64,000 bases of DNA. Source: Escherichia phage WPEC5. Shown piece after piece: positions 36,567-63,885 of this stretch. Below the pieces are notes generated by a model. The model did no database searches. It saw only the letters and a program-made list of their open reading frames with translations, and had not been told where the DNA came from. The stretch is taken from sequence record PV654397.1; one strand, given 5' to 3'. The position numbers and the translations under genes were made by a program. How positions within the stretch are numbered: position 1 is the stretch's first letter; each line of letters begins with the position of its first letter.

Positions 36567-37067
36567 TTAGGTCACAGCTTTGTATTTCTCCATTGCTTCG
36601 GTGATATTCAATACTGCTTGCGGTACGTCACTTTTGTTGTATGCAGTGGTTAGTTTTTCCATGTTATTGAGAAGACTTAGAAACAATGGAAGTACTTCTG
36701 CATTGTCACTGAAGTTACAATCATTGACAGTACTCAATTGGAATAACTCACCTGCATCAACATTGAGTGTGTTGTATTCTTTAACAATGTTTTCTTCAGT
36801 ATTGAAGATGTAGAATACAGTCCCCATGTGGTGTAAGTATACACCAGTATCATTCTGAATATGACATGGGGTGATTACAATTGCTGTGTTATCAATATTA
36901 TTTACTATTGTCAAACGAAGACTATGTAACCCAAAGATTACAGTACAATCCTTTGTACTGTGTTGGATCTGGTCACTAGTAAAGGAAGACCCACTATGAT
37001 TTTTAGATCCATTTAGTATTTCTTTGATAATTTTAAATGAATACTTCATCGAATTAGTTAAAAGCAT
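36567..37067 (-). CDS. FQ-motif family paralog
   Basis: Motif AGELFQLSTV. Confidence 0.55.
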   Translation of the reverse strand: MLLTNSMKYSFKIIKEILNGSKNHSGSSFTSDQIQHSTKDCTVIFGLHSLRLTIVNNIDNTAIVITPCHIQNDTGVYLHHMGTVFYIFNTEENIVKEYNTLNVDAGELFQLSTVNDCNFSDNAEVLPLFLSLLNNMEKLTTAYNKSDVPQAVLNITEAMEKYKAVT

Positions 37068-37467
37068 GAACTTTACCTTTAAGTAAATTAATTAATGTTC
37101 GCATAGATTCAGTACTGACAGTACCAAAATCAACACCTAAGCACTCGTATTGAAAGAACTCAATAGAATCAATTGAGTCCAAAGGAATCTCAACAACCTG
37201 ATTCCCTATACCAGACATAGTAACATTGCTTTTATTAATCGTCAAGAAGTTTTTTGAATAAGTATTAAATTTTAGTGAAATCGCATCGGGGTGCTTTGTA
37301 ACAATGCAGTACTGGGAGCCATACACATATAGTACTTTACTTTCACTAAGATCCGTTTTAAAAAAATGAATCCCATTGAAGTATTTCTCATTGGCTTTCA
37401 TCGCCGCGATTAGTTCATCTGTTGTTGTTAACCTTGTTTCGTTCTTCGTTAAACTGTTGAAAAGCAT
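37054..37467 (-). CDS. FQ-motif family-like protein (degenerate motif)
   Basis: IEFFQYECLG. Confidence 0.5.
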   Translation of the reverse strand: MLFNSLTKNETRLTTTDELIAAMKANEKYFNGIHFFKTDLSESKVLYVYGSQYCIVTKHPDAISLKFNTYSKNFLTINKSNVTMSGIGNQVVEIPLDSIDSIEFFQYECLGVDFGTVSTESMRTLINLLKGKVHAFN

Positions 37468-37888
37468 AGAATACTACCTTAACCATTTGTAGTGTTTCAG
37501 ACATTACTTCTGATGAAAATTCAACATCATTGAATTTCAGCATAGTGTTCTGTGTAAAGAAAGTTGCTTCTAAGTCTTCCAGATTGAAGGGTTCATCAAA
37601 CAAATTAGTACTGAACATGTCAGTCTTCTTCTTGTATGTGAACAAGAATTTGGAATTATAACGAAGAACTATTTCATCTTTATTAACCAAAATACGTGCA
37701 ATGTTCTGACGTGTCAATGTGGTAATGTTTAAATTGAACACGTTCTTGCGTGTTTCAGTGATATCAACAAAATACCCATCTCCCTGATGGATATTACATC
37801 GTACATCCAACCCTTTCTGTACTGTATTGAACAGTGCATCTTGAATAAAATAATTTGCTGTATCGATGTTTCCTAAAATGTCTAACAT
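37415..37888 (-). CDS. hypothetical protein (degenerate FQ-like motif)
   Basis: EATFFTQNTML. Confidence 0.5.
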   Translation of the reverse strand: MLDILGNIDTANYFIQDALFNTVQKGLDVRCNIHQGDGYFVDITETRKNVFNLNITTLTRQNIARILVNKDEIVLRYNSKFLFTYKKKTDMFSTNLFDEPFNLEDLEATFFTQNTMLKFNDVEFSSEVMSETLQMVKVVFYAFQQFNEERNKVNNNR

Positions 37889-38400
37889 AACTTCTCCTTG
37901 ATTGCTGTCATATTTAGAAGAAATTCTTCAAGCAATTCCTCTGTAACATACTCAACATACCAGAATATCACAATATCTTTTGAAAGTCGAGTATTCTTAA
38001 AAATATCTACTAACTCTTTGTAGTACTCAAGATCATATACATCTTTTATAATTAGTGAGTACTGAAATAGTGATTCTTCAGTTAACTTAAATTCTGGATA
38101 TAGTAAGTCATTAAATTCTAATGATTCTGATTGTACTTTTATTTTAGTGAAGTCATTTGTTAATCCACCATTACATCCATATAATGCAGCGTAATTCACG
38201 AACTTGGCTTTTGGATTAAAATCAAGAACAGTTTCACCATTATATGACAATCGGTGGAACGCCGTGAACTTTGTAATTTGCCACGGTTGCTTAATATCTA
38301 AGTCATTTATGTCTTTATTATTGTACATAAGAACAGTGAATATTTCAGCAATCTTCAATAATAATTTAGTACGTGCTAGTACTGTCATAGGTTCAATCAT
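37882..38400 (-). CDS. FQ-motif family paralog
   Basis: TEESLFQYSLII. Confidence 0.55.
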   Translation of the reverse strand: MIEPMTVLARTKLLLKIAEIFTVLMYNNKDINDLDIKQPWQITKFTAFHRLSYNGETVLDFNPKAKFVNYAALYGCNGGLTNDFTKIKVQSESLEFNDLLYPEFKLTEESLFQYSLIIKDVYDLEYYKELVDIFKNTRLSKDIVIFWYVEYVTEELLEEFLLNMTAIKEKLC

Positions 38401-38813
38401 TATACACCTTCATATTCATCAAGGAAATCTTCGATGATCATTTCTGCGTCATCCATGTGCATAGCATCAACTTCAACAATGCGAACCTTAGACGTATCCC
38501 AAATCATATAGCTAGGAACTGTATCTGGTTCGTAATCGTTTTTGTACTGAACTGCATCATAGCCGTTAATTTCGCAGTACTCAATCACTCCACGCCATTC
38601 GTCGTCACTGCCCATATCCGTCCACAGAAGCACGTTATCAACATCAACTTCTAAGGTATGTAAGTATACTGTATCAGCGTCAACAACGTTCAGTGGGCTT
38701 CTCAGCTTGCGTAATGCAGCTTCTAAAGCACTGTGTTTGCCACCCATATGAAGGCCACCATACGGGATATAAAAGTTATCAATTTTTACAGTACTCGCAT
38801 GATACAGTTTCAT
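38400..38813 (-). CDS. hypothetical protein (137 aa)
   Basis: ORF track; no FQ motif. Confidence 0.55.
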   Translation of the reverse strand: MKLYHASTVKIDNFYIPYGGLHMGGKHSALEAALRKLRSPLNVVDADTVYLHTLEVDVDNVLLWTDMGSDDEWRGVIEYCEINGYDAVQYKNDYEPDTVPSYMIWDTSKVRIVEVDAMHMDDAEMIIEDFLDEYEGV

Positions 38814-38822
38814 TATTCATTC

Positions 38823-62443: not shown

Positions 62444-62626
62444 TTAATTTGGTGGATTTGGATGTAATAACTGATCTATATAATTTAAATGTTCTATTGT
62501 AACTAATGAAAGATAATAATTGTAATTATCTATACCACCCTTTAAATGTATATTGTAATACATCTTGATACTTACTAATAAAGAATCATTTAAATCATTT
62601 ATTGCTTTTGTATTAACGGTTTTCAT
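62444..62626 (-). CDS. small hypothetical protein (60 aa)
   Basis: ORF track only. Confidence 0.3.
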   Translation of the reverse strand: MKTVNTKAINDLNDSLLVSIKMYYNIHLKGGIDNYNYYLSLVTIEHLNYIDQLLHPNPPN

Positions 62627-62765
62627 TAATGTTCTTCTCTTAAAAAACGCTTAATGGCACAATCTAAATAAAAATCATAATACATCATATCTCTATTCTT
62701 AACCCATACACAATAATCTGCATTAATATTTCTTAATAATATATTCATATTATAATCTTCACACC

Positions 62766-63176
62766 CTAATCGTGCCATTTAATAGGATACTCCGTTCCAT
62801 TTATTGTATAAGATATAATCCATCCGTAATGAATAGGATGATTTTTGTCTGAATCAGGAATAAAATATAAAGATGTACTGGGGTTATAACTGAATAAATC
62901 GTTGTTACCAATTGTAAAATGTGATAACTCAATCTTCCTTGTACCTGTACTTGGACGAAGAACATTCTTAACACCGAAGACTGTACCTTGATATTTCTCG
63001 GAAAATTCAAACAATGCATCTGCAATTAAATCACGAAACTCCGCATGTATGGTTTCAAAAAAATCTATATTACACGATGTTTTAATATCCTTGAACTCCT
63101 TATATAAAGAGCTTCTTGTATTCAAAAGAAATATTACTTTTTTAAGATCCTGAACTATTTCTGGATTCATATTCAT
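62766..63176 (-). CDS. hypothetical protein (136 aa)
   Basis: ORF track. Confidence 0.5.
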   Translation of the reverse strand: MNMNPEIVQDLKKVIFLLNTRSSLYKEFKDIKTSCNIDFFETIHAEFRDLIADALFEFSEKYQGTVFGVKNVLRPSTGTRKIELSHFTIGNNDLFSYNPSTSLYFIPDSDKNHPIHYGWIISYTINGTEYPIKWHD

Positions 63177-63426
63177 TTATCTCATTCTGTAACTTATGCA
63201 TCAAAATTTGTATATTAATTTTTCGTCCAAGGTGATTGAGAAATTTCTGTACCATTTCTTCTTGTACTGATGTACCAAGATAAAATAACATATTAAATTC
63301 CGATAACCTCAGAGCAAAATCGTCATCTCCCCCTTGTAAACAAAAATCCCTGTACTTTGATGCATACAAATAACGGTTTATTTTTTTGTACATTTGGGTC
63401 TGCATTGTATCTCCTTTTTCATGCAC
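63142..63426 (-). CDS. YLGT-motif small protein paralog
   Basis: NMLFYLGTSVQEEMVQKFLNHL. Confidence 0.45.
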   Translation of the reverse strand: MHEKGDTMQTQMYKKINRYLYASKYRDFCLQGGDDDFALRLSEFNMLFYLGTSVQEEMVQKFLNHLGRKINIQILMHKLQNEINEYESRNSSGS

Positions 63427-63590
63427 CTTATTAGATTATCAACGTATTGATCCTGTACTATTGTCCCTAGATAAAATGATACTTCGAACTCTGATAATTT
63501 TATATTGAAAGGATCTACATATACATCTTTAATAAACTCTTTGTACTTCAACATATATGCATTAGGTATATTCTTATATATCGATTTCAA
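63378..63590 (-). CDS. YLGT-motif small protein paralog
   Basis: EVSFYLGTIVQDQYVDNLIRCM. Confidence 0.45.
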   Translation of the reverse strand: MKSIYKNIPNAYMLKYKEFIKDVYVDPFNIKLSEFEVSFYLGTIVQDQYVDNLIRCMKKEIQCRPKCTKK

Positions 63591-63885
63591 TGATCCTCCC
63601 TGACATACCTTGTATTAGCTTATCATACATATCGAGCATCACTTTTTGAATACTAATTAATACTGGCATCGTGCAAATATCAATGTCGTATATTAAGCTG
63701 TACTGGAATAATTCCTCTTCCTGCATGTGTACTAAATTAGGTAAAAGATAATTGTCTGCCTCTTCATCCTGGTACTTGAAATGCATAACACCATCCTTTT
63801 TGTACAAAAGAATGTCAATATCACCTAACTCTTCTGCATAACCAAAAATACATATACTCGATGTTTTTGCTATATTAAATTTCAT
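63574..63885 (-). CDS. FQ-motif family paralog
   Basis: EEELFQYSLIYDID. Confidence 0.55.
   Translation of the reverse strand: MKFNIAKTSSICIFGYAEELGDIDILLYKKDGVMHFKYQDEEADNYLLPNLVHMQEEELFQYSLIYDIDICTMPVLISIQKVMLDMYDKLIQGMSGRIIEIDI

Follow-up and report, generated by a model that had tools for sequence, protein, structure and literature searches.

Why a phage should carry dozens of small, mutually related genes in a row, and what their products may do, is the question raised by a 64,000-nucleotide stretch of Escherichia phage WPEC5 (record PV654397.1; hereafter the window, by which the whole stretch is meant). The genes form an array at positions 36,567-63,885, and an earlier note, made from the nucleotide letters alone, had described them as about 45 paralogs sharing a short motif around a Phe-Gln (FQ) pair. 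We find that the array is built around a single family, here called the FQ family, and propose, with a probability of about 0.42, that it is a tandem multigene family of early, non-structural, diversified binding proteins in which the motif forms the core helix of the scaffold.

The array genes form one family with a 12-residue signature

A hidden Markov model (HMM) of the C-terminal part was iterated over the window and three related loci, with reversed sequences as decoys. The broadened HMM assigned 43 of the 53 open reading frames of at least 100 amino acids on the minus strand between 36.5 and 63.9 kb to one family, and these 43 members fill 76% of the array span. Its matches numbered 43 in the window and 47 in phage fEgEco12; an uncultured relative gave 32, part of Klebsiella phage K64-1 gave 24 and the reversed decoys gave 0. 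Searches by jackhmmer from single members joined 29-34 window genes and retrieved none of 846 reversed or shuffled decoys; by these comparisons the similarity among the array genes is true homology that extends beyond the motif string. A looser reading of the motif block gives ~45 genes. With at least two motif-degenerate members, 43207-43770 (FN) and 44932-45477 (FS), which have lost FQ and are still tied to members by jackhmmer, on top of the 43 HMM-defined ones, the family size given in the earlier note is borne out.

Matches to the strict pattern [DE][DE]x[YFLMWI]FQx[STNC] number 20, all of them in the three minus-strand frames and between 38 and 63.7 kb; across the whole window the pattern has zero matches on the plus strand and in the DNA upstream of the array. 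Residue shuffles of the same proteins average 0.02 occurrences and never exceed 2, which gives the shared motif claimed in that note its statistical support. FQx[ST][LTCV][VILM] was observed 32 times, with 0.12 expected. The example peptides quoted in the note are present in genes 52176-52619 (SEEYYFQNSTLY), 50979-51425 (TEEGYFQGSTVY), 48579-48938 (EDELFQESLVWDKKY) and 40559-41140 (EEQYFQLSTIH).

The hallmark of the family is the 12-residue string [STD]-E-E-x-h-F-Q-x-S-[LT]-[VIL]-[YWHF]. Over 110 non-identical motif windows from three lineages, in which F and Q are fixed by the selection rule, the signature reads [S/T/D]-E(0.76)-E(0.63)-x-h-F-Q-x-S(0.83)-[L/T]-[V/I/L]-[Y/W/H/F]-[D/N], and on its C-terminal side only a hydrophobic periodicity is seen. 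Relative to the Phe, Glu is found at -4 (0.76) and at -3 (0.63), and L, Y, F or I at -1; the residue after Q, at +2, is Y (0.25), L (0.16), E (0.13), Q (0.13) or N (0.07), with the Ser one position later. F and Q are the only invariant residues in a 44-sequence alignment. The motif Phe is followed by a median of 51 residues (interquartile range 47-57) and preceded by 59-164. The codons used are TTT (23) and TTC (21) at the Phe, and CAG (26) and CAA (18) at the Gln, while the motif Ser is drawn from both codon boxes. Because synonymous codons at F, Q and S vary freely, the motif is evidently selected at the protein level; an origin as a DNA- or RNA-level repeat is ruled out by the same variation.

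Overall identity within the family is ~15%. The members are acidic (median isoelectric point (pI) 4.8, net charge -8.5 on ~160 amino acids), and no transmembrane segments were found across them, save in one probable false N-terminal extension (57313-57951).

Predicted structure of long and short forms

The long form 52176-52619 was modelled by AlphaFold2 (AF2) with 43 family sequences as input, reaching a predicted local distance difference test score (pLDDT) of 90.8 and a predicted template modelling score (pTM) of 0.86. The model runs from an N-terminal helix through seven short strands, a short helix, the motif helix (residues 100-106), a long helix (residues 112-126) and a strand to a C-terminal helix, and the motif helix sits in its best-predicted blocks. 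The AF2 model of the short form 48579-48938 (pLDDT 74, pTM 0.72) repeats this order of elements, starting with four strands and going on to the motif helix (the best block, pLDDT 94), the long helix and a terminal strand. Over both models the motif segment is predicted to be helical at pLDDT 94-97. Because the long-form and short-form models agree in order, the predicted common core is sheet, motif helix, long helix and strand, the terminal helices being extra in the long forms. According to the models it is the beta-meander that varies, and conservation falls on the N-terminal helix, on the motif helix and on the C-terminal helices, in agreement with the conserved ends and divergent middle noticed earlier.

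A helical wheel, combining the information content of the motif windows with the AF2-predicted helix, puts the conserved positions -4, -3, 0, +1, +3, +4 and +5 on one contiguous face around the invariant Phe and the least conserved ones (-2, -1 and +2) on the opposite face. Because the conserved face is centred on the Phe, with the variable positions opposite, the wheel points to an inward-packing, mostly buried core helix. S/T/D-E-E are residues favoured at a helix N-cap. The long-form model has no structural relative in the libraries searched and is a candidate new fold.

The expansion is old and its copies are maintained

Comparison with phage phAPEC6 gave an omega (dN/dS) below 1 in 42 of 42 ortholog pairs (range 0.06-0.67, median 0.26), non-family neighbours having an omega of 0.16; the N-terminal part is slightly more relaxed than the C-terminal part. 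Every member with a phAPEC6 ortholog lies in the same gene order. The ongoing diversifying selection that the earlier note had brought up finds no support in these values or in the conserved order, and gene-wide positive selection was not found in any phAPEC6 pair.

The subfamilies named in the note (MSLxSAL, CNLNKGD and MKYKMLYTL) are indeed recent tandem duplicates. For most paralogs the distance to one another is as great as that to members from K64-1 or the uncultured relative, and one-to-one orthologs are seldom found between genera. The diversification is evidently an old one, with turnover between genera and with each copy stably maintained within a genus, and the repertoire is not one that evolves fast at present.

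Genome setting, expression and virion content

In a megablast comparison the part of the window at 45-55 kb aligned along its full length with Escherichia phages WPEC3 and fEgEco12 at 97.8% identity, and it was ~84-86% identical to PBECO4 and 121Q. Because of the identity to WPEC3 and fEgEco12, the window is assigned to an Asteriusvirus-type ("RaK2-like") jumbo myophage of ~350-380 kb. It has a G+C content of 30-36%, and all plausible genes are on the minus strand; the array genes are tightly packed, with few gaps. fEgEco12 has direct terminal repeats of 20,993 bp (PMC13070987). In its record the FQ family lies at ~27-56 kb, just inside the terminal repeat, with the direction of transcription away from the left end. 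Beyond the point that corresponds to the window edge fEgEco12 carries four further family genes, after which the array ends; the suggestion that the array continues past the edge was thus correct.

The sites that best match the sigma-70 type lie in the gaps of the array, and all of them have an extended -10 (47713-47684, 43826-43798, 57903-57875 and 59277-59249), and two of these promoter-like sites (43826-43798 and 59277-59249) come directly after terminator-like hairpins. Their placement in gaps is suggestive of early sigma-70 transcription. For phage CBB, early expression of the equivalent region had been predicted from evidence of this kind (PMC5259590), and in the more distant PA5oct small terminal-repeat genes are early by RNA-seq measurement (PMC7318152). 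By analogy, the array is probably early.

In phAPEC6 the family corresponds roughly to gp404c-gp466c. The mass spectrometry list of phAPEC6 virion proteins has no entry between gp347 and gp549 (PMC7247149). Because gp404c-gp466c falls in this empty range, the family proteins are non-structural. Virion or ejected proteins processed by a prohead protease were also considered, and are ruled out by the phAPEC6 virion proteome.

Database comparisons and taxonomic range

The note had not recognised the family, and neither did the databases. For 10 representatives nothing above 19 bits was obtained from Pfam, and the precomputed Pfam field is "-" for all 31 database relatives; NCBIfam gave no family match for array members, PADLOC gave only three single-member matches at chance level among the 43 members, and a profile against all Protein Data Bank sequences gave zero matches at E values up to 10. 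Foldseek found no convincing similarity to any solved structure. Against viral predicted structures it retrieved uncharacterised proteins only, with those of 121Q, SP27 and RaK2 at E <1e-3 and those of fHe-Yen9-04, Serratia phage BF and GAP32 as borderline matches.

In PHROGs the array proteins are spread over a dozen families of "unknown function". Window members match PHROG 9317, 12674, 13866, 15629, 33987, 19795, 30978, 28549, 34636 and 35972 at 1e-34 to 1e-116, and they cross-match one another's PHROG families. The same proteins, as found in 121Q, PBECO4 and RaK2-type phages, make up these families; in PHROGs, however, they stand as many unconnected families without function, motif or fold, whereas here they form one family with at least 43 copies per genome.

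A profile was run exhaustively against 1.84 billion cluster representatives and returned 67 matches, all of them small proteins of this kind save one (P0032, 997 amino acids), which was rejected as a relative: it is a translated tandem repeat in which LFQYSVI occurs by chance. A search by tblastn from a K64-1 member reaches Klebsiella and Escherichia phages only. The range supported by sequence comprises Escherichia and Salmonella Asteriusvirus-type phages, Klebsiella Alcyoneusvirus and the uncultured relative, whose 24-kb contig consists nearly entirely of FQ-family genes (~38 of 41). The motif is kept across these three lineages, and the family is, by its sequence distribution, confined to the RaK2-like clade. 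Because tblastn stops at Klebsiella and Escherichia phages, the GAP32 and Eneladusvirus proteins are borderline candidates for membership, put forward by Foldseek matches only. One member (P0015) is deposited as a partial "Actinomadura adrarensis" protein on a 563-bp contig, probably a coliphage contamination of the assembly.

Proposed function and alternatives

We propose that the FQ genes encode small (100-210 amino acids), acidic, soluble, non-virion proteins beside the terminal repeat of a RaK2-like jumbo phage, from an array that would be transcribed early by the host sigma-70 RNA polymerase. The members would share one alpha/beta scaffold, made of a beta-meander of paralog-specific length and sequence, a two-turn motif helix, a long helix and a beta-strand, to which the long forms would add N-terminal and C-terminal helices. 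The motif helix would tie the sheet to the helices, with S/T/D-E-E as N-cap and F, together with L/T and V/I/L, as core anchors, and the variable sheet and loops would offer paralog-specific binding surfaces. Each copy would bind, and then neutralise or redirect, a different host or defence component during takeover. What the analysis shows is the paralogy, the motif, the protein-level selection, the predicted fold, the absence from the phAPEC6 virion proteome, the purifying selection, the synteny and the taxonomic range; that the genes are early, that the motif is buried and that the proteins serve in binding is what we infer. A host-interaction or anti-defence role is plausible, being compatible with the position of the array, its promoter-like sites, the absence from virions and the acidity.

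Several points weigh against this proposal. An invariant Gln together with a conserved Glu-Glu and Ser would be unusual for a purely structural element at ~15% identity, and these residues could instead mark a shared functional site; the burial of the motif is itself read from a helical wheel. The acidity is moderate, far below that of classic DNA mimics. Within the genus the selection is purifying and the gene order conserved, which does not resemble an active arms race, and the promoter-like sites as a class are not commoner than in shuffled sequence. The literature searched holds no transcriptome, interaction or phenotype data for the early region of any RaK2-like phage.

The main rival, possible if unlikely, is that the members are hub-docking adaptors, in which the motif helix and the C-terminal module would dock on a common partner and the variable beta-domain would pick the targets. 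The partner could be a phage ClpP working with a host unfoldase, by which many host proteins would be degraded. F-box/PRANC proteins and protease adaptors have just such a shared docking part and a variable target-selecting part. The combination of a variable domain with an invariant E-E, F-Q, S signature that is kept across genera while the rest drifts speaks for docking, as do the ClpP homolog (11594-12289) and the weak ClpP-like gene (8053-8661) encoded in the window, and there is a precedent in Gp53 of phage SPO1, a host-takeover protein that acts as a Clp adaptor (PMC6873191). However, the motif helix is predicted to be structured with its conserved face on the Phe, which suggests intramolecular packing; conservation is limited to 12 residues and does not amount to a docking domain; Foldseek gave no match to the folds of SspB, ClpS, MecA or F-box proteins; the window proteins that were scanned yielded no unfoldase; and the link to ClpP is that of a shared genome only. 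In a more far-reaching version, which we consider decidedly unlikely, ~50 early proteins would constitute an F-box/PRANC-like repertoire that docks a single hub, e.g. phage ClpP with the host unfoldase, through the one E-E-x-h-F-Q-x-S helix, and the diversified beta-domains would bring dozens of host or defence proteins to it. If true, this would amount to a host-takeover system that is programmable, reaches across the proteome and uses a fold not seen before.

It is very unlikely that a common small molecule or ion, e.g. a nucleotide-derived signal, binds between helix and sheet in a pocket lined by the E-E, F-Q and S residues, which would make the family one of sequestering or sensing proteins. 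Invariant aromatic and polar residues are typical of pockets and the proteins are small, soluble and probably early, but there is no similarity to solved folds, two acidic residues suit phosphate-bearing ligands poorly, and fifty copies for one ligand have no obvious rationale. That the members join through the conserved module into a hetero-oligomeric, non-virion intracellular structure or matrix is most improbable: the conserved terminal helices could serve as a common interface for many co-expressed paralogs, but repeats and coiled-coil signatures were not seen, and the monomer models are compact and confident.

The likeness of the motif to protease sites deserves mention, although cleavage of every member after FQ by a Gln-specific protease, freeing a C-terminal piece of ~50 amino acids, is scarcely credible. 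The tobacco etch virus (TEV) site is ENLYFQ↓S/G and the picornavirus 3C site is LEVLFQ↓GP. The family shares with the TEV NIa and 3C sites the linear order E-x-x-[Y/L]-F-Q (E at P6/P5, Y or L at P3, F at P2 and Q at P1), and its site keeps a near-constant distance from the C-terminus. Natural 3C and NIa sites require a small P1' (Gly, Ser or Ala), whereas P1' in the family differs from member to member and tends to be a bulky residue (Y 0.25, L 0.16, E 0.13, Q 0.13); the conserved Ser stands at P2'. Moreover, the segment is embedded and predicted to be helical at the highest pLDDT, neither extended nor disordered; some members carry FN, FS or LQ in place of FQ; the 34 non-family window proteins scanned include no chymotrypsin-like peptidase, only the ClpP type, which is not Gln-specific; and the family is absent from virions. 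The phage maturation proteases known to us cleave after Glu.

That the array is functionless filler has next to no chance: it was clearly made by tandem duplication, and a head-full ratchet that fills an enlarged capsid has been proposed in general terms for jumbo phages (PMC5646251), but every copy retains its open reading frame, omega is below 1 in 42 of 42 pairs with syntenic orthologs, and the motif is kept across genera. Two further candidates were rejected. Ocr/ArdA-type DNA mimics combine an extreme negative charge with an elongated, DNA-like surface or fold; the family does not match them in fold, and a pI of 4.8 with a charge of -8.5 is only moderately acidic. The beta-clamp-binding motif QL[SD]LF calls for a hydrophobic residue behind the Gln and for a flexible terminus or loop; in the family many different residues, often polar ones, follow the Gln, and the segment is internal and predicted to be structured.

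Analogous systems

African swine fever virus MGF360/505 and the poxvirus Bcl-2-like and ankyrin/PRANC proteins are terminal multigene families of large eukaryotic DNA viruses. They offer the closest analogy to the FQ family as we propose to read it: in both cases there are tandem, non-structural paralogs near the genome end, with a conserved scaffold, diverged surfaces and lineage-specific gain and loss between genera. There is no sequence or fold relationship, however, the host of the FQ phages is bacterial, and the likeness is one of putative function only.

The host-takeover module of SPO1 comprises 26 small early genes in a terminal region, among them that of the ClpCP adaptor-like Gp53 (PMC6873191). 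Like the FQ array, it is a cluster of small early genes at the genome end of a large lytic phage, and it sets a precedent for protease redirection; unlike the FQ genes, the SPO1 genes are mostly mutually unrelated rather than one paralog family, and they have no homology to the FQ family. Phage G carries a ~35-copy zinc-ribbon expansion that was called unprecedented in a comparative study (PMC7824862). In contrast to it, the FQ family is larger (43-50 copies), far more diverged (~15% identity) and not a zinc ribbon.

Tandem arrays in 121Q-type genomes have been remarked on, in the passages concerned, in single sentences (PMC5646251; PMC7247149; PMC3622015). The remark of 2017 (PMC5646251) was made about this group of phages and describes the same process, a jumbo genome inflated by tandem duplication; that sentence does not define a family, and its "Very similar" suits the neighbouring family of 65-90 amino acids at least equally. 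All members are deposited as "hypothetical protein", and in the literature searched we found no definition of the FQ family, its signature, size, predicted fold or distribution. Tandem early-region paralog arrays as such are already known; what is new here is the unrecognised fold and the sharp signature.

The FQ family makes up ~7% of the genes of fEgEco12 (47-48 of 670), or ~12% with the neighbouring 31-copy family, and the RaK2-like clade that shares it includes Escherichia and Klebsiella phages under consideration for therapy. Phage genes without known function are usually singletons, whereas the FQ repertoire is a tractable entry with one scaffold, one signature and dozens of natural variants. 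If the copies bind host or defence proteins specifically, they would be a ready inhibitor library and would show which targets a jumbo phage has to neutralise; if they share one partner, a new takeover hub would be revealed.

Members and elements of the array

All are on the minus strand; lengths are in amino acids (aa), the string given is the motif, and values are HMM E values.

36567-37067, minus: member, 166 aa, DAGELFQLSTVN, 4e-7
37054-37467, minus: possible weak member, 137 aa, motif-like string DSIEFFQYECLG at the usual position; missed by the broadened HMM and jackhmmer
37882-38400, minus: member, 172 aa, TEESLFQYSLII, 5e-7
38823-39407, minus: member, 194 aa, MEERLFQESCVS, 6e-7
39996-40547, minus: member, 183 aa, SEEQHFQLSTIH, 1e-7
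40559-41140, minus: member, 193 aa, GEEQYFQLSTIH, carries EEQYFQLSTIH, 7e-11
41127-41633, minus: member, 168 aa, IEENEFQNNTLS, 3e-7
41630-42058, minus: probable degenerate member, 142 aa, LQ for FQ (SLALQYGVLYD); joined to the short-form cluster by phmmer, missed by the HMM
42058-42636, minus: member, 192 aa, VDEELFQMSTVI, 3e-10
42623-43207, minus: member, 194 aa, REAYIFQRSVLD, 3e-7
43207-43770, minus: degenerate member, 187 aa, FN for FQ (VLLFNANLIH); jackhmmer joins 3 HMM-defined members and 0 decoys, phmmer pairs it with 42623-43207
43798-43859, minus: terminator-like hairpin (43859-43840), then promoter-like TTTACA-17-TATAAT with TG (43826-43798), in an 87-bp gap
43858-44442, minus: member, 194 aa, TDEVQFQLSTIC, 3e-10
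44369-44935, minus: member, 188 aa, LESVMFQHMLIH, 2e-7
44932-45477, minus: degenerate member, 181 aa, FS for FQ (RIKFSLSNNE); jackhmmer joins 1 member and 0 decoys
45458-45952, minus: member, 164 aa, SEESYFQNSLIY, 6e-14
45940-46353, minus: member, 137 aa, TPDELFQYSLVL, 5e-12
46337-46699, minus: member, short form, 120 aa, SEEELFQESTVN, 4e-11
46692-47174, minus: member, 160 aa, TEEMYFQGSCIH, 1e-12
47171-47650, minus: member, 159 aa, SEEEFFQYSTLY, 2e-11
47684-47713, minus: sigma-70-type promoter-like TTGACA-18-TATAAT with TG, 12/12, a consensus match only, in the 59-bp gap upstream of 47171-47650
47710-48300, minus: member, 196 aa, NEENYFQQSLLN, 6e-9; start probably too far upstream (the fEgEco12 annotation is shorter)
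48251-48589, minus: member, short form, 112 aa, DTGELFQESLVL, 6e-9
48579-48938, minus: member, short form, 119 aa, QEDELFQESLVW, contains EDELFQESLVWDKKY, 4e-16; second AF2 target
49537-50133, minus: member, 198 aa, TEENIFQNSLMW, 8e-11
50446-50982, minus: member, 178 aa, FDEQCFQLSCTE, 2e-6
50979-51425, minus: member, 148 aa, TEEGYFQGSTVY, 7e-11
51422-51865, minus: member, 147 aa, SEDAYFQYSTIY, 2e-10
51865-52179, minus: member, short form, 104 aa, HESFIFQESLVW, 6e-9
52176-52619, minus: member, 147 aa, SEEYYFQNSTLY, MSLxSAL subgroup, 7e-14; first AF2 target
52594-53085, minus: member by HMM, 163 aa, SEEYYFQNSTVY, MSLxSAL subgroup
53088-53528, minus: member by HMM, 146 aa, TEEYYFQQSLIF, MSLxSAL subgroup
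53525-53995, minus: member by HMM, 156 aa, SEEFYFQQNTIY, MSLxSAL subgroup
54179-54595, minus: member by HMM, short form, GEAEIFQESLIF, CNLNKGD subgroup; true start probably 54523 by the fEgEco12 annotation
54525-54890, minus: member by HMM, short form, 121 aa, DDVELFQASLVF, CNLNKGD subgroup
54887-55246, minus: member by HMM, short form, 119 aa, DAAELFQESLVF, CNLNKGD subgroup
55243-55668, minus: member by HMM, short form, DDAALFQEALVF, CNLNKGD subgroup
56407-57033, minus: member, 208 aa, SEEMLFQYKTVH, 4e-8
56972-57316, minus: weakest member, 114 aa, DEAARFQHETAF, 8e-5
57313-57951, minus: member by HMM, DEAAYFQQSLID; first 40 codons probably a false extension (hydrophobic, with a promoter-like site inside)
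57875-57903, minus: sigma-70-type promoter-like TTAACA-17-TATAAT with TG, 11/12 matches
58041-58649, minus: member, 202 aa, IESFFFQLSLVQ, 2e-7
58646-59221, minus: member, 191 aa, SAEEYFQYSTLH, 6e-10
59249-59308, minus: terminator-like hairpin (59308-59287), then promoter-like TTGACA-17-TACAAT with TG (59277-59249), in a 74-bp gap
59296-59793, minus: member, 165 aa, TEEWWFQQNLVH, 1e-11
60100-60669, minus: member, 189 aa, SEEAFFQESLFT, 2e-8
60641-60991, minus: member by HMM, short form, SEEEFFQMQCVL, MKYKMLYTL subgroup
60988-61299, minus: member by HMM, short form, 103 aa, SEEEFFQMQLVV, MKYKMLYTL subgroup
61289-61795, minus: member, 168 aa, CSAELFQKSLLY, 2e-9
61872-62432, minus: member, 186 aa, NEAEVFQTSLIY, 3e-9
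63574-63885, minus: last member in the window, short form, 103 aa, QEEELFQYSLIY, 1e-11

Neighbouring genes and further observations

A second tandem paralog family, of 65-94 amino acids and with the motif F-[YF]-[LV]-G-[TS]-x-x-Q, is interspersed in the array with four copies (50081-50308, 50250-50477, 63142-63426 and 63378-63590). It has 31 copies in the fEgEco12 locus and 13 in the K64-1 locus, with 0 decoys, and 27 of the 31 fEgEco12 copies stand in a single run that separates the FQ family from the terminal repeat (locus positions 40559-46748). Outside the array, 28093-29493 holds a third small paralog set, four genes of 89-103 amino acids that are kept in fEgEco12. A 229-amino-acid protein also encoded outside the array (24797-25486) carries SEEEHFQLMMMR and clusters by phmmer with 39996-40547 and 40559-41140; it is missed by the family HMM and by jackhmmer and may be a distant outlier of the FQ family.

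The gene 11594-12289 encodes a ClpP of the cellular type (Pfam 1.3e-41), cellular ClpP models outscoring head-maturation models, and the match of the second ClpP-like gene, 8053-8661, is weak (4e-4). Neither is a gp21-like prohead protease, and both are missing from the phAPEC6 virion proteins listed; the window proteins scanned showed no unfoldase in their vicinity. A polynucleotide kinase/phosphatase (21638-22570), a T4 Rnl1-type RNA ligase (23393-24535) and an ATP-dependent DNA ligase (13948-15366) are also encoded; the pair of kinase/phosphatase and RNA ligase is a classic counter to host defences that cleave tRNA. Other genes specify a PhoH+PIN protein (3447-4886), a Nudt16-like NUDIX hydrolase (5577-6128), a Sir2-family protein (6125-6877), a dCMP deaminase (9207-9683) and a phage N6-adenine methyltransferase (31241-31765). 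The phAPEC6 counterpart of the PhoH+PIN protein (PhoH-like gp341c) belongs to the virion proteome.

The largest gap of the array (55669-55828, 160 bp) contains the G+C-rich tracts GGCCGCAGGGGGGGGTC and CCCCGCCGCAAACG, which are unusual for a region of ~32% G+C. The YFQGST codons of 50979-51425 form, at 51120-51139, the near-perfect palindrome GGTACTTCCAGGGAAGTACT, which is matched on both strands in a terminator scan and is probably coincidental.

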